NCBI GenBank assembly: GCA_965204745.1
Contig: OZ242010.1
Location: 4,224,001-4,288,000, forward strand
Length of the DNA stretch: 64,000 nt
Direction of reading: 5' to 3'
Origin: Candidatus Latescibacterota bacterium
GTDB taxonomy: Bacteria; Latescibacterota; UBA2968
Of the stretch, positions 2,464 to 54,697 are shown one piece after another. The translations under genes and the position numbers were made by a program. Every line of letters starts with the position of its first letter. Within the stretch, counting starts at the first letter, position 1. The notes below the pieces were generated by a model. It ran no database searches. It saw only the letters and a list, made by a program, of their open reading frames with translations, and was not told where the DNA came from.

Positions 2464-4404
2464 TTAAAAATACAAACTGTGCCCTTGCCCTTGGAAGCAC
2501 AGGGCGTCGATGACAAAGGACGCGCCAGCCGCGGAAAAGTGCCCGACCACGAGGCCCACAAAAACGGGCTTGGCGCGGTTGTAGAGCATCAGGCCGCCGA
2601 AGCGGATCAGCAGCACTTTGATGGCCCAGGCCGCGAACAGGGACAACAACGTCCACTTCACTTGCCCCACAGAGGCGATAGAAAATCCAATGGGATGCAG
2701 GCGCCACCACGCGAACCGATGGCGGCAGTACGTCAGCAAAACCGTCACGAGCGCGCCCAAGGCCAAAAACGCGAAGTGCCCGAAGCGCAGGGTTTCTGCG
2801 GCTTTGATTTTCGCCACGACCGTATCAAAGGGCACTTGGCCGCCGCGCCGAAAAACCCATTCCCCAAAATTGTACGCGCCCGAGGCGTATGCCAGTTTGA
2901 GCGAAAAATAAAAGGACACCATCAAGCTGAGGGCCAGGGCCAAGCCCACGGCGGTGAGGTACGCGCCGCGCGGAAATCGCTGCTCGCTGTGGACGCGGGC
3001 CGCGTTCGCGCCAAAGGGCATAAATGTGGCGATGGGGTCGCACGCCCAGCCGTAGGACAGGCCGAGGCCGGTCATGGTCGCGGCCGTCAAATTCGCCGGG
3101 CCGACGAGGTGCATCGCGTACGCCTGCGGCACGAGCGGGCCGCGCACGAACACCAGCCCGCCTTCGATGACGATGCGCGTGAGGCCCAAATAAAGCGTGA
3201 CAACCGCAAAGAGCAACAGCGAAGCCACGCCCGGCTGGATCCCGATGCGCGTCAGCCAGAACAAAATGTAGAGCGCGCCGAGCGCGATGCCGAGCAGGGC
3301 CGCGCGATAGCCCATGATTTCCTCGCGGTCAGACGCGCCGTCGGCCTTGCCCCGTGCGGTTCGCCACACCCCGCGCAGATGTTCGCGCGCGACCCATATC
3401 CCGCCCATCACGACCGCGACAAAGGCCCCGAACCCCTGCCAGGCCAATGCGGCCGGGCTGACCGAATACACTTCGGACGTGCCGATAGTGAACCCCGTGC
3501 GGTTGAACAGCGCGACCTCGGCCATGTTGAACAGGTTGAAAAACCACACGCTGAAAATCACATCCACATTCACAAAATACGTGATGCCCACCAACGGCAG
3601 GGACAAGTTGGTCGAAATCCCCGGCCAGACCTGCCCGCCCAGGAGGTTCAAGCGGAGGGCCGGGATAGTGGGCCAGCCCTCAAAAAAGTAGCCCGGCACG
3701 TTCCACGCGATTTTGCCCGCGGCAATGCCAAAGCCGATCCAGAACAAGCGACTCCGCATGAATTGCGGTAGCAGGCGATCCTCACCTGCGCCCACCATCA
3801 TCATCAACGGGACGTCGACCAGCGGAAAATTGAGGCGTTCTTTGTCCTCCCACTGCTTGCGAAAAACCGCGATGAGACACGTACAAAGCGTCATGGTGGC
3901 GACGATGACGGACCCCCACCAGAACAGGGGCATGACCCACACGCGCCAGGGGATTTGCGCGCCCGGGGGCAGGCCCTCGAAAAACCACGCCACTTCGCGG
4001 CCTTCGCCGGGCACGGCCCACAAGGGTACATGGCTGTGGATGAACTCGGCCCATCCATTTTCGGTCGTGGCAAAATAAAAGGGCGACGCGGCTACGGAAA
4101 TCACGTAGCCGGTCGCCCCATACGTGGGCACGGATACCGCGACCAACAGCATCATATAGACCACGCCCAACTCATCGCCGGTCAGGCCGCCGCCGCGCTT
4201 TACAGCTTTCAAGATCGGATTGAGCACCACGACGACGAGGATGAACAACGCGGCCAAGCCCAACGGAAAATAATTGGTGGTCAACAGGGTGGATCGCACG
4301 ATCCATTCGGAATACGGCGCCAACAGATTCACCGCAACGACGACGAGAACGCCAATGCCCAATGCCTTTGGCGTGAGGACGGCCGCGGGCGGGGTTTCTG
4401 ACAT
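2464..4404 (-). CDS. polytopic membrane protein, DUF6785/DUF6784-like putative transporter
   Basis: many TM segments; RKQWEDKERLNFPL and WWRLHPIGF motifs; start set at ATG 4404 because the ORF extension runs through a repeat. Confidence 0.75.
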   Translation of the reverse strand: MSETPPAAVLTPKALGIGVLVVVAVNLLAPYSEWIVRSTLLTTNYFPLGLAALFILVVVVLNPILKAVKRGGGLTGDELGVVYMMLLVAVSVPTYGATGYVISVAASPFYFATTENGWAEFIHSHVPLWAVPGEGREVAWFFEGLPPGAQIPWRVWVMPLFWWGSVIVATMTLCTCLIAVFRKQWEDKERLNFPLVDVPLMMMVGAGEDRLLPQFMRSRLFWIGFGIAAGKIAWNVPGYFFEGWPTIPALRLNLLGGQVWPGISTNLSLPLVGITYFVNVDVIFSVWFFNLFNMAEVALFNRTGFTIGTSEVYSVSPAALAWQGFGAFVAVVMGGIWVAREHLRGVWRTARGKADGASDREEIMGYRAALLGIALGALYILFWLTRIGIQPGVASLLLFAVVTLYLGLTRIVIEGGLVFVRGPLVPQAYAMHLVGPANLTAATMTGLGLSYGWACDPIATFMPFGANAARVHSEQRFPRGAYLTAVGLALALSLMVSFYFSLKLAYASGAYNFGEWVFRRGGQVPFDTVVAKIKAAETLRFGHFAFLALGALVTVLLTYCRHRFAWWRLHPIGFSIASVGQVKWTLLSLFAAWAIKVLLIRFGGLMLYNRAKPVFVGLVVGHFSAAGASFVIDALCFQGQGHSLYF

Positions 4405-4464
4405 GGTGCGTTGAATGGATTGTACCACGATGGGATTCTCGGAGTGATTAAGACGGGAGGGGGT

Positions 4465-4574
4465 TAGCCACAAAAGGCACGAGCGGGGTACAACTGGCGA
4501 TAGCCAGTTCAAAGGCACAAAAGGCGAGCAGGATGTGTAGGGGCGATGCCCCTGTGCTCGCCCTAAGATACAAG
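4465..4574 (-). repeat. REP-containing small repeat element, copy A
   Basis: minus strand CT-TGTATCTT, GGGCGAGCACAGGGGCATCGCCCCTAC (GTAG-type REP hairpin), CCTTTGAACTGGCTATCGCCAGTT, TTTTGTGGCTAA; homologous to 18170-18378, 24885-24960, 27238-27291. Confidence 0.85.
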
Positions 4575-4655
4575 GGGAATGGCGAGAGGTGAGAGGCGAG
4601 AGGTGAGGCAACCCCGCCCATCCGCTCCCTTCAGGTAAGATACTCTCTTAAAAGG

Positions 4656-5663
4656 TCAAGGGGTTTTCGGGGTGATTCGATAGAATTTTTCGCCCTCAAA
4701 ATCTTGGTCATGGCGCAACATGCCCCAGATCGAATGGAGCAACTTTCGCATCACCGCAACGATAGCCTGCAAAGGTTTCTTGCCGCGGGCGATGAGTTGG
4801 TCATAGAAGGCTTTGACATGGCCTTCGTGTCTGATGGCCACCCAGGCAGGCATATAGAGGGCATGGCGGAGGTACTTATTCCCGGTTTTCGAGATGCGTC
4901 TTTGTGGATTGGCGGTTCCGGATTGTTTGGGTTTGGGATCCAGGCCTGCATGTGCGACCCACTGGGGCGGTTGCATCTCCTCTGGCAAAAGGGTCAACTC
5001 GGCCAAGAGCCGCAAGGCACTCGTTTGCGCGATGCCAGGCGTCGAGCAGAGGCGTTGGTAGGCACGCTTGAGGGGCTCATCGTGCAAAACGAGATCGAGG
5101 GCTTGGCTTTCCAAGTATGCAATCCGGCGTTTGAAGTGTCGAATATTCACCTGAATATCGCGTGCGATGAGACGTGTGCTGCGGATGTGGTAGCTCTGCG
5201 CGTGGTTGCGGCTCTGTTCGCGGATGATCTCCTGCTTGAGTTGGTCAATGCGTCTGGTGAGGGCTTGCAGTTGAAGCCGTTGCTCGCTCGGCGCTTGCCA
5301 AGGCACAAAAGGCATGCGCTCGGCATAGTCGAGGATCAACAACGCATCCTTCGCATCCGTCTTCGCCCGTTGCATGCAGGCTTGGGCGTACTTGCTCATC
5401 GCTTTGGGATTGACGACCATGACCTTTGTGTGGCGATGCCGATGCAAGGCCAAGGCCACCCCCAAACTGTAAAGCCCGGTCGCTTCGAGGCACACAGAGA
5501 CCATGTGCCCGCCCTTCGTGAGCCACTTCAGCAACCGCTTATGCGCTTGGGGATCATTGGCAAAGGTCGCTTGCATGACAGCTTGTCCGGGTCTGGACAG
5601 GGCAACGGACAACGTGCGGGCACTGACATCAATGCCGGCAAAAGCGGGGTGAGATTTCGACAT
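4656..5663 (-). CDS. IS110-family DEDD recombinase/transposase
   Basis: GIDVS, CLEATG, KTDAKDA (D-E-D-D), QSG serine motif, RISKTGNKYLRHALY, AVMRKLL; AGGAGG RBS before ATG 5663. Confidence 0.95.
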   Translation of the reverse strand: MSKSHPAFAGIDVSARTLSVALSRPGQAVMQATFANDPQAHKRLLKWLTKGGHMVSVCLEATGLYSLGVALALHRHRHTKVMVVNPKAMSKYAQACMQRAKTDAKDALLILDYAERMPFVPWQAPSEQRLQLQALTRRIDQLKQEIIREQSRNHAQSYHIRSTRLIARDIQVNIRHFKRRIAYLESQALDLVLHDEPLKRAYQRLCSTPGIAQTSALRLLAELTLLPEEMQPPQWVAHAGLDPKPKQSGTANPQRRISKTGNKYLRHALYMPAWVAIRHEGHVKAFYDQLIARGKKPLQAIVAVMRKLLHSIWGMLRHDQDFEGEKFYRITPKTP

Positions 5664-5734
5664 GGGGGCCTCCTGTGATGAGGGGGTTGTAAGGGATCTG
5701 GTGCGCGCTCGGGGTCGCGTCCCGACCATTGACG

Positions 5735-5916
5735 CCAAGTCTACCGGTCTTGTATATGCAGCCTCAAGGGGCTTAGATACTCTTCGGCATAGACCCGGCG
5801 GTCGGGGGGCCTATCTTACCTACAAGGTCATCGCCTTCAAGAGGGGCCGGCCTTCCCCGAGCCGGGCATCAAGATGGCTTATCTCGATACGAGGGCGCAA
5901 CTCCTAATTAACCCTT
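5735..5916 (-). ncRNA. predicted IS110 bridge RNA (ends approximate)
   Basis: target loop with guides at 5840-5848 and 5815-5821 around an AAGG/CCUU stem; donor loop with guides at 5775-5783 and 5749-5755 around an AGCC/GGCU stem, closed by GUCUA/UAGAC. Confidence 0.8.
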
Positions 5917-6003
5917 ACTTCCAAGATACAAGAGGGGAGACGTAAGATGCAATTTTAGCCACAAGCCAGGGACAGGGTCTCTGGCTCTTTTTGTGTCATT
6001 TCC

Positions 6004-6200
6004 GCTCCTTCAAATCATAACATCTTGTAACAAATCGTAACAAATCGCACATGTTACGTGAATGCGAAAGAAAGTTGATTTGATAGACGCTTCACAGGGC
6101 GTGCGTCCACGCGCTTACAACCTCGTGTCCGTCTTACAGCACCTCCACGTCCGTTTAGCGACTCGGCAGGGCTTGCCGCGTCGTAGTGTTTCAAATTGAT
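6004..6200 (-). ncRNA. putative omega/reRNA scaffold of TnpB (5' end approximate)
   Basis: position at the element 3' end overlapping the tnpB tail, as established for TnpB elements; structure not computed. Confidence 0.45.
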
Positions 6201-7862: not shown

Positions 7863-8314
7863 CCTTATCGGGACCTACCCCCCTAACCCCCGTTACTCGC
7901 TTCGCTTCGTTGTAGGCTACGCCTGTGCCTTAGAGGAAGGGGGAACAGTGAGCGGTTTTGCGAGGGGATTGATGAGGGATTTTCAATCGCTTTATGCCCT
8001 CGCAAAACGCCATCAAAACAACCAGAGCGAGAAGCCATCAAAGAAACTTTACTCCCCTTTCCTCGTAGGAAGGGGGAACAGTGAGCGGTTTTGCGAGGGG
8101 ATTGATGAGGGATATTTAATCGCTTTATGCCCTCGCAAAACGCCATCAAAACAACCAGAGCGAGAAGCCATCAAAGAAACTTTACTCCCCTTTCCTCGTA
8201 GGAAAGGGGCCGGGGGATAGGTCCCCTCACGCAACGCCATCAGAGCAACCTAAGCCATCAAATGACCAAACGCCTTAAATGAGCAAGAAGCAACACAGTT
8301 GCTACTCTGTGCGT
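7863..8314 (+). repeat. MITE-derived repeat without terminal repeats, with a 133-bp internal tandem duplication
   Basis: homologous to 36088-36517 and 49216-49612; 7934-8066 repeated at 8067-8199. Confidence 0.85.
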
Positions 8315-18040: not shown

Positions 18041-18127
18041 TGAATTGCCTTTGTGAATTGGGCCGAAGCCGCGTCCCTACACCTCTACACCTCTGCACAT
18101 CCATTGCCTCGGGGTGGAAGGGTGGGG

Positions 18128-18158
18128 ACTGACTACTGACTACTGACTACTGACCACT
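18128..18158 (+). repeat. ACTGAC(T/C) heptamer tandem repeat preceded by a G-rich tract
   Basis: direct reading. Confidence 0.9.
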
Positions 18159-18169
18159 GCATCTCCCCT

Positions 18170-18378
18170 CTTGTATCTTCGGGCGAGCACAGGGGCATCG
18201 CCCCTACACACACCGCTCGCCTTTGAACGGACTATCGCCATACCCCTTTTGTGCCTTTGAACTGGCTATCGCCTTTTGTGCCTTTGAACTGGCTATCGCC
18301 TTTTGTGCCTTTGAACTGGCTATCGCCAGTTATACCCCTTTTGTGCCTTTTGTGCCTTTTGTGGCTAAAATCTCATCT
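18170..18378 (+). repeat. REP-containing small repeat element, copy B, with a 3x 27-bp internal tandem repeat
   Basis: starts CT-TGTATCTT, REP hairpin, (TTTTGTGCCTTTGAACTGGCTATCGCC)x3, ends GTGGCTAAAATCTCATCT. Confidence 0.85.
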
Positions 18379-19560
18379 CACGTCCTCAACCCGGCAGATC
18401 GCCTCGCCTTTTGCGAACTTGATGGACAGGCGTTCTTCGGGCGTCAAGACATGTGCATCGGACACTATCGAACCGTCTTCGCGCTGGATGATGCCAAAGC
18501 CGCGCGCGAGCACGGATAGGGGGCTGAGCGAGCCGAGTTTGCCCGTGAGCCGGCGGTAATCCGCCCATCGCGTTTCCAACAACCGGCGCAAAAGCGCGTA
18601 CAAATCGCCGTGCAATTCGTCGACGTGTTGCGCGTGTTGGTCGATCAAATCGGCCATGCGCCGCATGCCGTAGCTATCTTCGTAGGATTCCAGCAGATCC
18701 GCGTTCTCGTCTAACAACCGCTTTAGGGCATCGCGGGCGCGCAGGGTGAGCCGCCCGACTCGTTCGCGCACCTCCGCCACATCGCGCACCGCAATTTCCG
18801 CGGCAACAGAAGGCGTTGGCGCGCGCACATCTGCGGCGAGGTCCGCAAGCGAGATGTCGATCTCGTGCCCGACGGCTGAAATGGTGGGAATATCGGACTG
18901 GGCAATGGCCCGCACCACGCGCTCGTCATTAAACGCAGCCAAATCCTCTGCGGACCCGCCACCGCGGCCGATGATGAGCACATCGACCTCGCCAAACGCA
19001 TTCAGGTCCGCAATGCCCTGTGCAATTTCCTCTGGCGCGCCCTCCCCTTGCACGCGCGCGTGCCGCAACACGACGCGAACCCCGGCAAACCGTCGGTTCA
19101 ACACATCCAAAATATCCCGAAAAGCCGCGCCGGTTCGAGACGTGACCACCCCAATGCCGCGGGGGTATTCGGGCAGGGGGCGTTTGCGGTCTTGGTCAAA
19201 CAGGCCCTCGTCTGCCAATTTCTGCTTCAATGCTTCAAAGGCGAGTTGCTGTTGCCCCTCGCCTGCGGGCAACAAGTGGAACACATTGAACTGGTACTCG
19301 CCCCGGCGTTCGTACACCGTCAATTGGCCCTGTGCCAACGCGGCCATGCCCAATTCCGGATGAAATCCACCGATGGGACGCGACCGCCACATCACGCAGC
19401 GCAACTGGCTGTCGCTGTCCGAAAGCGTGAAATAGCGATGCCCAGATGAAGGTTGCGAAAACGAGGTCAACTCCCCGAAGACCCACATGGGTGGGAATTG
19501 CGTCTCGAGGGTTTGCTTGACGGCTTGCGTGACTTCGGATACCGAAAGCGCGTGTTCCAC
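18373..19560 (-). CDS. xseA: exodeoxyribonuclease VII large subunit
   Basis: SGHRYFTL, VVTSRTGAA, GRGGGS, SAVGHEID, RAPTPS. Confidence 0.97.
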   Translation of the reverse strand: MEHALSVSEVTQAVKQTLETQFPPMWVFGELTSFSQPSSGHRYFTLSDSDSQLRCVMWRSRPIGGFHPELGMAALAQGQLTVYERRGEYQFNVFHLLPAGEGQQQLAFEALKQKLADEGLFDQDRKRPLPEYPRGIGVVTSRTGAAFRDILDVLNRRFAGVRVVLRHARVQGEGAPEEIAQGIADLNAFGEVDVLIIGRGGGSAEDLAAFNDERVVRAIAQSDIPTISAVGHEIDISLADLAADVRAPTPSVAAEIAVRDVAEVRERVGRLTLRARDALKRLLDENADLLESYEDSYGMRRMADLIDQHAQHVDELHGDLYALLRRLLETRWADYRRLTGKLGSLSPLSVLARGFGIIQREDGSIVSDAHVLTPEERLSIKFAKGEAICRVEDVR

Positions 19561-20350: not shown

Positions 20351-20419
20351 ATGTACTCCCGTTGGTTGAGATGGTGAATATACACAAAATATTTGTCGCT
20401 TGCAAAGGGCGGCGAAACG

Positions 20420-20567
20420 AGTTGTCAGTTGTCAGTTGTCAGTTGTCAGTTGACTAATTCTAACGAACATAGCGGTGGGGAGCGAGCGGGGGCTGACTAC
20501 TGACTACTTGGGCGGTAGGGTCAGGTGGGGACTGACCACTGACTGCTGTCAGTGGTCAGTAGTCAAC
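20420..20567. repeat. composite heptamer/G-rich intergenic repeat, copy 1
   Basis: (AGTTGTC)n, GACTAATTCTAACGAACATAGCGG, G-tracts, CTGACYA units; near-identical to 33229-33369. Confidence 0.9.
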
Positions 20568-24884: not shown

Positions 24885-24960
24885 GACGAGCACCCACACA
24901 CTGCTCGCCTTTGAACGGGCTATCGCCAGTTGTACCCCGCTCGTGGCTCAACTCCCATCT
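24885..24960 (+). repeat. small repeat element, copy C (degenerate)
   Basis: GCTCGCCTTTGAACGGGCTATCGCCAGTTGTACCCCGCTCGTGGCT. Confidence 0.75.
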
Positions 24961-25628
24961 CACCGATACCATTTGCCCAATATTTCATCCGATACCGAGC
25001 ACGTATAGAGCACTCGCAACGCCCACATCTTGACCACTGTGCGGACAAAGCCCTGTTCGCGCCAGCGGCGGGTGGATGTGCAGACTTGGGCATCGAGCAG
25101 CGCGAATTTGCCCAGGCGCGCCACTTGTTTGCAAAACTCGGAATCCTCAAACAACTGCAAGTTGGGAAAGCCGCCCACGGCCTCAAAGGTTTCGCGCCGA
25201 ACATAGATGCCTTGGTCCCCGTAGGTGATCCCCAAATAGCGCGACCGCATGGTGCTCAGGAATGCGACCAACCGAAAGCCGATGGTGTTTTCCGACAAGC
25301 CGAGTCGAAATCGCCCGCCCACCACATCCGGCGCGTGCAGGGATTGGCGGATTAAGGCCAACCCATTGGGGGGCAACAAAGTGTCGGCGTGCAAGAATAA
25401 GAATACGTCGCCCGTGGCCTGTGCGGCGCCGGTGTTCATCTGACGCGCCCGCCCGGTTTCTGCTGTCCGAATCCAGTGCGCGCCGGGGTATGTTTCGACC
25501 ACGCGCCGCGTGCCATCCGTGCTGCCGCCATCGACCACGATCACTTCCACCTCGTCGCAAAATCGCGCCAAGCACACGCCGATGATGCGTTCTTCGTTCA
25601 GAACCGGGATGATGACGCTGATCTGCAC
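24960..25628 (-). CDS. GT2 glycosyltransferase (TIGR04283-like)
   Basis: ISVIIPVLNEE, VDGGSTD, GRARQMNTGA, FLHADT, YGDQG, TSTRRW. Confidence 0.9.
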   Translation of the reverse strand: MQISVIIPVLNEERIIGVCLARFCDEVEVIVVDGGSTDGTRRVVETYPGAHWIRTAETGRARQMNTGAAQATGDVFLFLHADTLLPPNGLALIRQSLHAPDVVGGRFRLGLSENTIGFRLVAFLSTMRSRYLGITYGDQGIYVRRETFEAVGGFPNLQLFEDSEFCKQVARLGKFALLDAQVCTSTRRWREQGFVRTVVKMWALRVLYTCSVSDEILGKWYR

Positions 25629-27784: not shown

Positions 27785-28858
27785 CTAAGGGGACTGTGTG
27801 GCAGGCCCCAAAAATCGGTTGATCGCGGTCATCAAGGTGAGGGCGATCAAGAGCAGGCTACCCAACTTAATCAGCAAGCGTTGTTCAAGAGCCTTGATCT
27901 CAGCCCGAACCGCTTGAATCTCGTTTCGCAGGGACGACTCGGTTTGCTCCAAATTGCTTTGAACCGCCTGAATCTCACTCCGCAAGGTCGCCTCGGTTTT
28001 CTCCAAATTGCTTTGAACCGCCTGAATCTCACTCCGCAGAGTCGCCTCGGTTTTCCCCAAGTCGTTGCGAACCGCTTGAATCTCGCTCCGCAGAGATGCC
28101 TCGGTCTTCTCCAAATCGCTGCGAACCGCTTGAATCTCGCTCCGCAGAGATGCCTCGGTTTTCTCCAAATCGTCACGCAGGGCTTGAATCTCGCTCCGCA
28201 GAGATGCCTCGGTCTTTTCCAAATCGCCGCGCAAAACCTCAACTTCGCTACGAACCGCTTGAATCTCACTCCGCAGAGATGCCTCGGTTTTCTCCAAATC
28301 GTCACGCAGGGCTTGAATCTCGCTCCGCAGAGATGCCTCGGTTTTCTCCAAATCGCCGCGCAAAACCTCAACTTCGTTGCGAACCGCTTGAATCTCGCTC
28401 CGCAAGGTCGCCTCGGTTTTCTCCAAATCGCCGCGCAAAACCTCAATTTCGTTGCGAACCGCTTGAATCTCGCTCCGCAAGGTCGCCTCGGTTTTCTCCA
28501 AATCGCCGCGCAAAACCTCAACTTCATTGCGAACCGCTTGAATCTCGCTCCGCAAGGTCGCCTCGGTTTTCTCCAAATCGCCGCGCAAAACCTCAACTTC
28601 GCCGCGCAAAACCTCAACTTCGCTACGAACCGCTTGAATCTCACTCCGCAGAGATGCCTCGGTTTTCTCCAAATCGCCGCGCAGGGCTTGCATCTCACTC
28701 CGCAGGGACATCTCGGTCTTCTCCAAGTCATCCCGAGTCGCCATATCCTCGCCGATTCCTTCGGCAAAGATATTCACCAAAGCATGCGCCTGATGCTCGT
28801 CAAAGTCGGCTTCCTCTTGCAACCGCAGGGACGCCTTGAGCGTATCGAATCCAATCAT
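27785..28858 (-). CDS. DUF1640/CCDC90-like membrane-anchored coiled-coil protein
   Basis: FDTLK...QAHALV head, ATRDDL neck, repetitive stalk, C-terminal TM; AGGAG before ATG 28858. Confidence 0.85.
   Translation of the reverse strand: MIGFDTLKASLRLQEEADFDEHQAHALVNIFAEGIGEDMATRDDLEKTEMSLRSEMQALRGDLEKTEASLRSEIQAVRSEVEVLRGEVEVLRGDLEKTEATLRSEIQAVRNEVEVLRGDLEKTEATLRSEIQAVRNEIEVLRGDLEKTEATLRSEIQAVRNEVEVLRGDLEKTEASLRSEIQALRDDLEKTEASLRSEIQAVRSEVEVLRGDLEKTEASLRSEIQALRDDLEKTEASLRSEIQAVRSDLEKTEASLRSEIQAVRNDLGKTEATLRSEIQAVQSNLEKTEATLRSEIQAVQSNLEQTESSLRNEIQAVRAEIKALEQRLLIKLGSLLLIALTLMTAINRFLGPATQSP
27900..28726 (-). repeat. coding tandem repeat with 54/75/96-bp units
   Basis: 13 units LEKTEA(S/T)LRSEIQA(V/L)R.. 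with optional EVEVLRG inserts. Confidence 0.9.
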
Positions 28859-31234: not shown

Positions 31235-33369
<2,135 letters not shown>

Positions 33370-34555
33370 GGCGTTGTTGCATAAATAGCAATTTCCTGCA
33401 AGTTGGGATAGCAAAAAGACAGGCTCCTTCGTAGATTGGGCATATAGATCACCAAACACCACTCACCCTTTCTCACCAGGAACCTGTCATGCCCAAGATA
33501 ACCGCTTCCCTGACCGCTGTCAAGTCCCCGCGTCGCCCGCGTCGCCCGCGCTGTGCGCCTGTCTATCGGGTCCGGAACTGGGCGGCCTACGAGGCCGGTC
33601 TCAAGCAGCGGGGCAGTCTGACGTTTTGGATTACGCCGCAAGCTCTTCGGGGGTGGTACCATCAAGGGCCAACGCAACGGGGGAGGCAAAACACCTTTTC
33701 AGATTTGGCTATTCAAACGGCGTTGATGGTGCGCTTGGTCTCTGCCTTGCCCCTGCGTCAAACCGAGGGGTTTCTCACGTCCATCCTGGCGTTGATGGGG
33801 GTGGCTTTGCGCGTGCCCGATCATACGACCCTCTGCCGGCGACAGGGCGATTTGAATGTGGATTTACCTGTCCAATCCCATCATGCGCCGATCCACTTAG
33901 TGGTGGATTCCACCGGCCTGAAAGTGTATGGCGAAGGCGAATGGAAGGTGCGTCAACACGGCTTTTGCAAGCACCGGACTTGGCGCAAATTGCACATCGG
34001 CGTCGATGAGGCCACCGGCGAGCTTGTCGCACAGACCCTGACTTCGGCAAGCGTTGATGACGCTTCGCAGGTCAACCCCTTGCTCGATCAAGTCCTGGCC
34101 CCTGTCCATACGATGGGTGCAGATGGCGGCTATGACAAACGCAAGGTCTTCAACACATGCGCCGCCCCCAAACAAGGAGCACCCATCCGACCTCTGATTC
34201 CCCCGCGCCATGACGCGAAAATTGAACAACACGGAAACAGGAAGGGCCCTCCCTTGGCCCGCGATGAAATCATCCGAGCCATCCGGCGTCAAGGCCGCCG
34301 ACAGTGGAAACGCACCCGTGGCTATCATCGTCGCTCGGTCGTTGAAACCCAACTATGCCGCTACAAACAACGCATTGGGCGGCAGTTGCGTGCGCGAAAT
34401 CAGGAGAACCAAGAAACGGAAGCGCGGTTGGGATGTGCGGTGCTCAATCGCATGATGAGGATCGCGAAACCCGTGTCCTATCCCAGAGAAAGAGGGGCTT
34501 AAATCTCGCGGGAAAGGGACGAACTTTGCCACGACAACATTTATGCAACAACGCC
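33370..34555 (+). mobile_element. IS5-family (IS903 group) insertion sequence
   Basis: perfect 17-bp TIRs GGCGTTGTTGCATAAAT / ATTTATGCAACAACGCC enclosing a transposase. Confidence 0.93.
33489..34502 (+). CDS. IS5-family (IS903 group) DDE transposase
   Basis: NWAAYEAGLKQRGSLTFW, PDHTTLCRR, VDSTGLKVYGEGEW, WRKLHIG, ADGGYD, GYHRRSVVET. Confidence 0.95.
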   Translation: MPKITASLTAVKSPRRPRRPRCAPVYRVRNWAAYEAGLKQRGSLTFWITPQALRGWYHQGPTQRGRQNTFSDLAIQTALMVRLVSALPLRQTEGFLTSILALMGVALRVPDHTTLCRRQGDLNVDLPVQSHHAPIHLVVDSTGLKVYGEGEWKVRQHGFCKHRTWRKLHIGVDEATGELVAQTLTSASVDDASQVNPLLDQVLAPVHTMGADGGYDKRKVFNTCAAPKQGAPIRPLIPPRHDAKIEQHGNRKGPPLARDEIIRAIRRQGRRQWKRTRGYHRRSVVETQLCRYKQRIGRQLRARNQENQETEARLGCAVLNRMMRIAKPVSYPRERGA

Positions 34556-34635
34556 ACTGACTACTGACTACTGACTACTGACTACTGACTACTGACTACT
34601 GACTACTGACTACTGACTACTGACTACTGACTACT
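34556..34635 (+). repeat. (ACTGACT) about 11x heptamer tandem array
   Basis: direct reading. Confidence 0.95.
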
Positions 34636-34708
34636 CTCGTTTGACCTCAAATGAAGGGCGTATTATTCTCATGCCGCGACTATGTATCACCACAGGAGGG
34701 AATGGGCG

Positions 34709-36087: not shown

Positions 36088-36517
36088 GGTTCTGTTGACA
36101 TTTACGAGCAAAGCAACTGGCTTGATCGGTTTATCGAGAAAATCAAGCCCTATCGCAGAATATGCTCTCGGTTTGAGAAACTGGAATAGTCTCTCCTTAT
36201 CGGGACCTACCCCCCTAACCCCCCTTCCTGCGAGGAAGGGGGGAACTGTGAGCGGTTTTGCGAGGGGATTGATGAGGGTTTAATCGCTTTATGCCCTCGC
36301 GCAATGCCATCAGAGCAACCAGAGCGAGAAGACATCAAAGGGACTTTACTCCCCTTTCCTCGTAGGAAAGGGGCCGGGGGATAGGTCCCCTCGTGCAACG
36401 CCATCAGAGCAACCAGAGCGAGAAGACATCAAAGGACCAAACGCCTTAAATGAGCAAGAAGCAACACAGTTGCTACCTCTGTGCGTAACGTGAAAAAAAT
36501 GAAATGTCAACACGACC
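36088..36517 (+). mobile_element. MITE derived from an IS5-family (IS427-type) element
   Basis: imperfect TIRs GGTTCTGTTGACATTT / AAATGTCAACACGACC flanked by TA; internal transposase-like relic NWLDRFIEKIKPYRRICSRFEKL. Confidence 0.8.
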
Positions 36518-36621
36518 TAAAAGATTCGAGATTGAATTTAGGCTGATTCATTCCCTGCTGAAATGCTTTTATTTTTTGTGACGATGCAAGGCGTGACCAC
36601 TTCTTGCGCTGATCGAACAAT

Positions 36622-49144: not shown

Positions 49145-49215
49145 TGCAAAAATTAGACGCCCGGATAGGGGTTGGGGTTTCCCGTATTGAAGTGGTCAGT
49201 GGTCAGTAGTCAGTA

Positions 49216-49612
49216 GGTCGTGTTGACATTTTATTTTTTCACGTTACGCACAGAGTAGCAACTGTGTTGCTTGCTGATTTAAGGCGTTTGGTCCTTTGAT
49301 GGCTTAGGTTGCTCTGATGGCGTTGCGCGAGGGGACCTATCCCCCGGCCCCTTTCCTACGAGGAAAGGGGAGTAAAGTTCCTTTGATGGCTTATCGCTCT
49401 GGTTGATCTGATGGCGTTGCGCGAGGGCATAAAGCGATTAGAAATCCCTCATCAATCCCCTCGCAAAACCGCTCACAGTTCCCCCCTTCCTCGCAGGAAG
49501 GGGGGTTAGGGGGGTAGGTCCCGATAAGGAGCGATTGTCCGAGTTTCTCAAACCGAGAGCCTATTCTGCGATAGGGCTTGGTTTTTTTGCTAAACCGCTC
49601 AAGCCAGTTGCA
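49216..49612 (-). mobile_element. IS427-type MITE copy retaining one TIR
   Basis: TA-GGTCGTGTTGACATTT at 49214-49231; reverse complement of 36088-36517; abuts an AGT(G/A)GTC heptamer run. Confidence 0.8.
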
Positions 49613-49644
49613 GGGCGCGTAGGCGCGTGGGGATTGTTTCTTCC

Positions 49645-53143: not shown

Positions 53144-53185
53144 CAACCAGCCCTTCACCGCTCGTAATTGGCGGTTAATTACAGC

Positions 53186-53290
53186 AATAAGCCAGAATAA
53201 GCCAGAATAAGCCAGAATAAGCCAGAATAAGCCAGAATAAGACAAAATAAGACAAAATAAGACAAAATAAGACAAAATAAGACAAAATAG
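53186..53290 (+). repeat. 10-bp tandem array (GCCAGAATAA x5, then GACAAAATAA/G x5)
   Basis: direct reading; flanked by GGCGGTTAATT direct repeats. Confidence 0.95.
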
Positions 53291-53294
53291 GCGG

Positions 53295-54697
53295 TTAATT
53301 GGCCCTCAAGCGTTTCCACTTAGATCCGTATCCGTGGCCTATAGGAGTAGCCAAGCCCAGTATCCTTAGAGTAGCCAAATCCTCGCGTATCTGACGTTTG
53401 CTAGCTGACAATTCAAGCCGTGCGTGTATCTCGCGCAACGCCAATCCTTTGCGAACCTCGTTCAGCAATGCAAGGATGACCTGTTGCCGCTCAGTCAGGT
53501 CGTGGCCTACTCGCTGGGGCGGCACGTAGCGGCTGGGGCGAAATCGCACGGTTACGCAACCGGATACATCCTCTATCTCAGGTTGCGGTAGTCCGGCAGA
53601 TGTCACTAACTCTGCCATCTTAATCGTCCCACTCCCCCATTGCTCAATAATGCCGCGCCGGTAAAACGCATTGGCAATCAGCGGGTTCCAAGGCTGCGAC
53701 TCATGCGCCATAAAAAGTAACGCAGGCGTTAGCCCAAAGTGCAGGGGACCGGTTGAGGTAATTTCCAAGCGGTCGTCGTAGATGCCCACAGACACTGAAC
53801 CGCCGCCGCTGGTGTAATCCCGGTGACACAGGGCGTTGGCCAAGGCTTCTCGCAACGCCAGTGGTGGGTATAGCGGTTCATCTACCCGCACAAAAGAGTC
53901 TGGCACAACGCGCCCGGCAACGGGCAGGTTCTGGATCAAGAAATGCTCTGCATGGGAGAGAAGCGCGAAGGCATTGCCGCGAAATTGGCGATTGTCGAGA
54001 AATTCAGTGCGACCAACGCCGCGAAACCGAGCGACTCGCAGTAAGCACTGCGGCATCTCGGCTTCTAGCCGGGCGTTGTTGCCAAACAGCACGAGCGCGG
54101 CACGCAAAAGCACGCCATCTTTGACGAGACCCAGGCCGCGCAACAATTCGTTGGGTTCTCGACTAATCGGATTAGCCGTTCTCCCGCGGCGGATGATTCA
54201 TCAACCGTGCGCTGGAGTTCAGCCAGGTCCAAGTCATCAACTGACCAGCCGACAGCAGGCTGGTTTTCCCATCGCTGTTCGCCGTGAACGCGTTCCAGAA
54301 ACATCTGGTCTTCGGCGTCTCGGGGCATACGCCAATTCGTGTTCCCAACGCGCCGATAGGCATTGCCTCGGTATCGGTAGGGAATCATATCCCCGCGATT
54401 CACTCTAACCACCAGTACTTCGCGTCCACCTGCAAGGGGAACCCGGTCAATGCTTGGAAAGGCCGGAGGCTCAATCCGCTGGAACTCCGCGCTTACATCC
54501 TCAATCGTGCGCTCACCCACTTGTTGTCCCGTCACCACGCCTTCCGGTGTGACGCCAATGAAAATGATGCCGCCGCGGTTGTTGAGCATGGCGCAAACCG
54601 TCTTGGCCGCCTCGCGTCGTTCGCCAGTGGTCTTTTTCAACTCCAATGTTTCGGACTCGCCGGCTGCAATTAGTCTTGTAATATCATCGAGCATCAT
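53295..54697 (-). pseudogene. Schlafen/AlbA_2 + HATPase-like + HTH protein, frameshifted near 54197
   Basis: GESETLELK...CAMLNNRGGIIFIG; ALREALANALCHRDY, NPLIANAF, IEQWGSG, C-terminal wHTH; adding one A joins the two ORFs. Confidence 0.8.

Follow-up and report, generated by a model that had tools for sequence, protein, structure and literature searches.

A seven-base IS110 end on the 5' edge of an older REP mosaic in a Candidatus Latescibacterota genome, most likely a leftover of the insertion sequence

The window is a stretch of 64,000 nucleotides from contig OZ242010.1 of a Candidatus Latescibacterota bacterium. Its genome is designated G000, and all other G-numbers denote compared genomes. 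At 18162-18378, in the spacer between xseA, which encodes the large subunit of exonuclease VII, and xseB, it carries a repeat element whose features are all read on the plus strand. According to the repeat listing, a heptamer array, (ACTGACY)n, lies upstream (18128-18159). The first ten bases, TCTCCCC-TCT (18162-18171), are of the heptamer-array type and not IS sequence; they equal the left target half plus the CT core (18170-18171) of the IS110 element described below. The following TGTATCT (18172-18178), here called the head, repeats the seven bases with which the left IS110 end begins, i.e. the right-donor half and a second CT, and is the candidate IS110 scar. It precedes the nested REP-A hairpin (18180-18221), for which DNA folding and family counts give an outer stem GGCGAGC/GCTCGCC and an inner stem AGGGGC/GCCCCT with the loop ATC; the reverse complement contains GTAGGGGC. 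Four 27-nt units (GCCTTTGAACTGGCTATCGCC...) occupy 18222-18336, and the last of them is a complete second hairpin, AACTGGC-TATC-GCCAGTT (18313-18331). A 9-nt array, (CCTTTTGTG)n, is listed at 18337-18364. On its 3' side the repeat unit closes with the tail GTGGCTAAAATCTCAT-CT (18361-18378), recognized by comparison of tail modules, and CACGTCC (18379-18385) reads as a heptamer-like right flank. This agrees with the first-pass annotation, which had described a GTAG-type hairpin with 27- and 9-nt units, and no IS body, behind an IS110-like start. With its simple-repeat array, nested hairpin of the GTAG type, 27-nt units ending in another hairpin, 9-nt array and tail, 18162-18378 is one copy of an old, genus-wide intergenic mosaic repeat of the REP/BIME type. 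Of the properties of that type, a short GC-rich palindrome with a GTAG end, intergenic location, many copies and mosaics were found.

xseA takes its last codons from the repeat, including the stop at 18373-18375 (minus strand). The ORF of the large subunit ends inside the tail with ..CRVEDVR* (18373-18385), C-terminal residues that G016 and G001 do not share. Therefore, the repeat replaced the 3' end of the gene by a few codons. The aligned stretches on the two sides of the xseA-xseB spacer lie ~26-71 nt apart in G001, G008 and G016, ~330 nt apart in G000 and ~546 nt apart in G018; in relatives outside the subclade that bears the IS (G000, G016 and G018), the spacer has about 30 nt. Diverged repeat remnants are present in this spacer in all three subclade genomes, and the tail is common to G000 and G018. 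The first-pass annotation had suggested a search for empty sites with a single CT core in related genomes. When G001, G008, G016 and G018 were compared with G000, no clean site of this kind was found at the xseA-xseB locus. Among 33 head-bearing loci of G016 (22 regions) compared with G000, four are collinear with a short G000 spacer and too diverged for base-exact ends. A further copy at genome position ~4977272-4977560 was considered as a transposition product and rejected, as it belongs to a duplicated segment. This segmental duplication (genome ~4977272-4978419) comprises the 3' part of nadK, xseB, the repeat element and the 3' end of xseA with 88-98% identity. In public runs, as represented by assembled contigs with flanks that are ~99% identical, contigs stop inside the repeat at ~18094-18145 and restart at ~18337-18380. 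One contig in X3 joins 18381 back to 18170, a joint that other copies of the repeat could equally yield.

The IS110-family insertion sequence of the window is located at 4638-5930 on the minus strand with its left core CT at 5932-5931. It contains a single recombinase ORF (4656-5663, minus strand) with the domains DEDD_Tnp_IS110 (PF01548, 1.4e-24) and Transposase_20 (PF02371, 5.1e-20). The combination of a DEDD RuvC-like domain with Transposase_20 assigns 4638-5930 to the IS110-family bridge-recombinase elements. All 57 PF01548 matches in the genome come from one IS family. Near-full copies number 52 (4638-5930 and 51 other sites), a burst composed of three subfamilies of ~100%, 96% and 88% identity; 33 copies share 99.4% identity or more with that of the window. 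Two copies are arranged in tandem at genome position 1122890-1124190 with one heptamer between them (..GTATCT-TACCTCT-TGTATCTT..).

In the 52 copies, the left flank is variable up to ..CCT-CT, the sequence from TGTATCTT to GAGAGTAT-CT is constant, and TRCCTCT heptamers follow. Position counts in the junction table likewise show constant IS sequence from TGTATCTTGGAAG to ..AAGAGAGTAT-CT and a right flank T(A/G)CCTCT. This means that the IS, which extends from 5930 to 4638, is inserted at a CT core within (CCTCTYR)n arrays. These arrays give 1424 pattern matches in G000, 614 in G018 and only 17 in G016, and all 52 G000 copies are found within them; the G016 IS is programmed for a different target. 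The left end reads TGTAT(C/G)TT in 52/52 copies, with TGTATCTT in 47 and TGTATGTT in the remaining five, which belong to the 88% subfamily. IS relatives as distant as 54% protein identity (G030) retain the donor ends AGAGTAT-CT and CT-TGTATCTT. Hence, the 7-nt unit is intrinsic to the IS.

The left end of the IS also contains the guide segments of a bridge RNA (5749-5846, minus strand). The target loop provides CCCCUCU (LTG, 5840-5846) and AGGUAAG (RTG, 5815-5821), the donor loop AGAGUAUCU (LDG, 5775-5783) and AUACAAG (RDG, 5749-5755), both loop structures being the reading of one fold. An Rfam scan of 4300-6200 with E up to 1 yielded no family match. The target loop can pair with the insertion flanks and the donor loop with the IS ends on either side of a common core dinucleotide, as expected for the non-coding RNA of such an element. 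The target guides covary with the insertion flanks in four IS lineages. The main IS of G000 combines the guides CCCCU-CU/AGGUAAG with the flanks CCCCT-CT/TACCT, its 88% subfamily UGCCU-CU/AAGUAAG with GCCT-CT/TACTT, and the G016 IS UCCUC-CU/AGAAAAG with CC(T/C)C-CT/TTTCT; in the G018 IS, the guide CGCCU-CU corresponds to the flank CGCCT-CT. This is a natural covariation of bridge-RNA target guides with their flanks in four lineages, and the programmed landing pad is a heptamer microsatellite.

The 18-mer TCTCCCCTCTTGTATCTT at 18162-18179 is the reverse complement of 5923-5940 without a mismatch. When up to two mismatches are allowed, it has two matches in the window compared to a mean of 0.00 in 100 shuffled sequences. 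The identity over 18 nt to the left IS110 junction had been noted before, and it was confirmed. Its interpretation as an IS110 end is valid for the part TGTATCTT. It fails for TCTCCCCT-CT, since in the 52 IS copies these ten bases are variable target flank plus the CT core, and only the remainder, TGTATCT(T), is IS left end. At the positions corresponding to 18162-18171, the IS copies display TCTTACC, CCACCCC, TTTCCCC and others, and the LTG of the bridge RNA is CCCCUCU. Outside the head, the 18-nt identity is heptamer-array sequence, the programmed target of the IS.

The conservation of TGTATCTT in IS relatives extends past the 3-5 nt with which the RDG pairs and therefore points to a role other than RNA pairing. 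It is conceivable that the unit on the repeats is kept for a host or element function apart from transposition, for instance as a junction promoter with the -10-like hexamer TATCTT or as a protein-binding site. In a circle junction, TTGACC would stand 18 nt upstream of TATCTT, as predicted from the sequence. The elements are, however, found in either orientation relative to genes, and such a function is considered very improbable.

Within the window, another head-bearing REP-A element, copy A (4465-4574, minus strand), is located downstream of the IS with heptamer units between them. As described previously, it begins with CTTGTATCTTAGGGCGAGC preceded by CCC. CTTGTATCTT occurs 212 times genome-wide compared to ~10 expected occurrences. 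Among 286 TGTATCTT sites of G000, the IS body follows in 53 and REP-A, (T/C/A)GGGCGAGCAC.., in ~93; the REP-B sequence CCTCGTAGGCACAGGCGTAGCC is next in 15-16, AGCAGTCAGCA.. in four and heptamers in a few. This means that the unit is carried by three modules: REP-A, REP-B and the AGCAGTCAGCA module with four copies. The variant TGTATGTT was never found as a REP head, as 5/5 of its occurrences are IS copies.

In the expanded A subtype of G000, 74/113 REP-A units bear the 7-nt head at a CT on their 5' edge, compared to 1/9 in the genus-wide A' subtype of the same genome. At 92 REP-A loci, chosen by the TGTATCTT pattern, C is present at -2 in 84/92 and T at -1 in 90/92. Of 3096 pairwise alignments among these loci, 2590 begin between -5 and -1 relative to TGTATCTT, and many stop at ..CCCATCT. 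Therefore, these are discrete units of ~100-150 nt. Their left ends are IS-like and start at the core, as would be expected from an IS110-derived MITE. The first-pass annotation had named ragged ends unrelated to the CT core as an argument against mobilization; in these alignments, the 5' ends are sharp at the CT core. Headless REP-A units, ..T-CT-TYG-GGCGAGC, correspond to the head-bearing form minus 7 nt. REP-A copies are ~80-83% alike over 44 nt, and no age contrast between head-bearing and headless ones was detected (0.83 vs 0.80).

REP-B provides a pair that differs by exactly 7 nt. In combination with module X (..GGAGAGATGTTATTCCCC-CT-TCCTCG(T/C)AGG..), the empty form CCCC-CT-TCCTCG is found beside the filled form CCCC-CT-TGTAT-CT-TCCTCG. 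Module X occurs in G000 without the unit twice with REP-B downstream and ~20 times with other downstream modules. Thirteen filled copies are listed versus the two empty ones that share the downstream sequence; another pattern yields 16 filled copies. In REP-B, the head lies inside the unit that is repeated. Two of the six G016 IS copies occupy the very CT of module X where G000 REP-B carries the unit.

The hairpin is not confined to genomes with the IS. With the compensatory variant GGCGGGCAC..CACCGCC, it was found in 21/21 genus genomes, including ones that lack a close IS homologue. The IS-free G008 has 75 hairpin copies, and the unit is absent from all 20 that were inspected. Most G008 copies follow a linker ..CC(A/C)AACG behind (GAATAGAC)n arrays, and a second-hairpin homologue comes after them. 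Since this hairpin mosaic exists without a close IS homologue and without the unit, it is older than the IS association. Head pattern and IS protein were searched for in 31 genomes; two genomes of the genus, G031 and G032, were in neither search. Head-bearing copies number 97 in G000, 136 in G016 and 21 in G018 with at most one in each of the 28 other genomes searched, and close IS homologues are encoded in the same three genomes. Copies in genomes lacking this IS110 had been named as an argument against mobilization by it. Heads with more than one match were encountered only in the three IS-bearing genomes of the 31. These three are each other's closest relatives, with identities of 93% and 90% over 2.6 kb compared to 78-82% for the rest, so that the co-occurrence of head and IS in this single subclade counts as one event.

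A RAYT transposase had been proposed as another agent with which the copies might track, and no such tracking was seen. Neither G000 nor G016 has a match to the Y1/RAYT family (PF01797). Four Y1 loci in other genomes of the genus have no REP-A-type hairpin within the ~800 nt scanned on each side, so that a Y1 gene flanked by REPs, as in RAYT-associated repeats, was not found. On the basis of these flanks, the idea that a RAYT had been lost was dropped.

The 7-base head on the 5' edge of the repeat is most likely an IS110 leftover and does not prove that IS110 moves the repeat. The form of this reading that is held with moderate confidence is an IS110-end/REP chimera, in which a 7-bp IS110 scar is inherited by REP subfamilies. 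GTATCTT is present both at the left end of the IS and across the junction of its right end with the flank, i.e. as direct repeats. Deletion of an inserted IS between them would leave LT-CT-TGTAT-CT-RT on the chromosome, which is the observed form. The scar might have been born in founder copies and passed on with the later expansion of these REP subfamilies, through whichever process disperses REP units in the genus. Within the IS110-bearing subclade, it is the dominant REP-A subfamily and one REP-B subfamily that carry TGTATCT, inserted at a CT dinucleotide. In favour of a scar are the filled and empty forms of REP-B with module X, the headless REP-A form that lacks just the 7 nt, the conservation of the IS ends in relatives, the covariation of guides and flanks, the near absence of TGTATCT among array units, ~9 solo CT-TGTAT-CT units in heptamer or target-like contexts, the headless hairpins of the IS-free G008 and the association of the head with the A subtype. 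Several observations speak against such a scar. Three modules contain the unit, and therefore either several scars, each of them amplified later, or module shuffling would be needed. The REP-A boundary coincides with the CT core, which is also how a recombination end would look. None of the 52 IS copies adjoins a REP-A hairpin, the site CT-TYGGG is predicted by none of the four bridge RNAs examined, and the 52 IS copies, all of which keep a TGTAT(C/G)TT left end, include no intermediate of such a deletion. Furthermore, solo scars within arrays are rare. In the literature searched, IS110 scars on REP families are not described. If the scar is real, nature has preserved the trace of an aberrant IS110 event, a footprint of 7 bp (LT-CT-TGTAT-CT-RT) from the duplicated donor GTAT-CT, and this would bear on claims of scarless editing by bridge recombinases.

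The head could also have arisen without the IS. CTTGTAT is a variant heptamer two changes away from the common CTTGCCT and might have been fixed beside REP hairpins by coincidence or convergence. In line with this, the IS ends themselves exhibit heptamer periodicity (..GTAT-CT-TGTAT-CT-T..), and the element edges are of the heptamer type and in phase. Such an origin is nevertheless considered improbable. TGTATCT accounts for only one of 1991 internal array units, compared to 10-33 for other variants. Past the core, 8 nt are identical, and three modules unrelated to each other show this same match. In module X, the additional 7 nt stand at the CT used by the G016 IS, and the head pattern has at most one match per genome in the 28 genomes searched outside the IS-bearing subclade.

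Alternatively, the REP units might hitch-hike, with the head TGTAT-CT serving as right-donor half-site on which the IS110 recombinase and its bridge RNA act in trans by a half-match. The poorly matched CAT-CT tail would then be the other end, and REP units would be copied out or recombined. This proposal is regarded as rather unlikely. The tail module has 189 copies with upstream context, mostly GTGGCTAA-AATCCCATCT or -ACTTCCATCT. As the first-pass annotation had observed, 3' ends at 18361-18383, 24943-24963 and 5963-5941 (minus strand) converge on GTGGCT(A/C)AA..CATCT(C/T)AC. It had also seen in them a loose likeness to donor-left, core and target-right. The shared AT-CT stands, and a left-donor match does not, since only ~3/7 positions of the tail agree with the left-donor guide AGAGUAU. 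Compared with the right end AAGAGAGTAT-CT of the IS, the tail AA(A/C)T(C/T)CCAT-CT has only A..AT-CT in common and thus lacks the similarity to the left-donor half that an IS110-derived MITE should possess at its right end.

In favour of the half-site proposal, the head matches core plus IS left end over 10 nt (CT+TGTATCTT) with its 5' boundary sharp at the core, and tails end in AT-CT like the right IS end, with A at -4 in 109/160. Tail-to-head junctions, ..CCCAT-CT-TGTATCTT, are present, head-bearing subfamilies dominate both REP-A and REP-B, the head is common to three module types and, among the 31 genomes searched, exceeds one match only where the IS is present, and a Y1/RAYT gene is absent from G000 and G016. 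The flanks argue against it. The right flank of the tail begins with C in 99/160 copies versus 6/55 for the IS in G000, and the left flank of G016 REP-A has T at -3 in 25/33, where the G016 IS has C in 6/6, as its guide predicts. Consequently, the flanks do not follow the guides of the resident bridge RNA either in G000 or in G016. In addition, the REP family spreads in other species without this IS, and the identity of REP-A copies, with or without head, is far lower than that of the IS copies. The co-occurrence with the IS in three genomes, moreover, represents one event. Canonical bridge-RNA-guided transposition is not supported, because the tail matches so poorly, the flanks deviate from the guides, the REP-B head is internal and REP-A is diverged. 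This separates the two readings that had been offered at the outset: a chimera of IS110 end and REP, as a unit of 7-8 nt at a CT beside REP hairpins, fits the data, and a MITE mobilized in trans is not supported in its canonical form.

The scar and the half-site might also be combined. Tentatively, the 7-bp scar could have turned an older REP family into a non-autonomous passenger of the recombinase, the right-donor half-site alone being sufficient (half-match copy-out). This would explain why scar-bearing REP-A, REP-B and the third module predominate in an IS-bearing subclade in which two of three genomes are without RAYT. If correct, a single donor half-site is enough to make passengers of host REP repeats.

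Published systems bear on this question. The first-pass annotation knew of no description of such a class, a statement that is out of date, as MITEPpu9/ssr9 of ISPpu9, an IS110-linked MITE-like element that forms transposase-dependent circles, was published in 2025 (PMC12288879). The circles favour mobilization in trans. MITEPpu9 of Pseudomonas putida KT2440 is likewise a small non-coding IS110-associated module in a REP-rich genome, it shares with REP-A a dinucleotide core at the junctions, and copies of both adjoin the IS or lie away from it. However, both MITEPpu9 ends (A'/B' boxes) are closely IS-like and its circles were demonstrated (PMC12288879), whereas REP-A resembles the IS only at its left end (8-10 nt), has an unlike tail and is known from sequence. 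For IS621, a preprint reports that donor arms alone suffice for excision (10.64898/2026.08.31.748434), which would help the half-site proposal; the arms described there are both intact. Donor mismatches are poorly tolerated in IS621 (PMC11208160). For expanded IS110 loci, partial circles are reported that often have a single half-match, mainly on the right-donor side (preprint 10.64898/2026.08.14.744561), again in favour of half-site use. In the two preprints (10.64898/2026.08.14.744561, 10.64898/2026.08.31.748434), the boundaries with one donor half and the preference for the right-donor side resemble the present case. The cases described there lie in or beside IS110 loci and were identified in circles or in reads across junctions, whereas the half-sites found here are dispersed on ~100 old REP units. 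The half-site reading, if true, would extend the MITEPpu9 and half-match findings to genome-wide repeat families.

The mosaic itself resembles REP/BIME mosaics, which are likewise composed of GTAG-type palindromes and short modules in intergenic or intercistronic positions. The BIMEs of E. coli and their RAYT are the familiar standard for this comparison; unlike RAYT-associated REP/BIME repeats, those of G000 have no RAYT (Y1 transposase) gene in the same genome. In the REP-targeting members of the IS110 family (IS621, ISPpu9, ISPpu10), the bridge RNA similarly aims the IS at a component of the host repeat system. Their target is the REP hairpin, while that of the IS in the window is the heptamer array (CCTCTYR)n. 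A likeness of the IS621 donor, ..GTAT-CT-TGTAT, was considered; the string did not occur in the text examined for it, and the likeness was not used as evidence.

The window contains further repeats. Heptamer arrays of the types (CAGTTGT)n and (ACTGACY)n are found at 20412-20560, 33207-33386, 34542-34649 and 49176-49216; some of them are inverted pairs that could form long hairpins. A dispersed family of ~130-240 nt, unrelated to REP-A, occurs in direct and inverted copies (D5, D6, D20, I1-I4) at 7934-8314, 36103-36519 and 49214-49621. Tandem repeats of 54 and 75 nt (families D1 and D2) form a long array at 27852-28787, probably within a coding region. At 53166-53305, a 10-nt tandem array, (AATAAGCCAG)n, turns into (AATAAGACAA)n.
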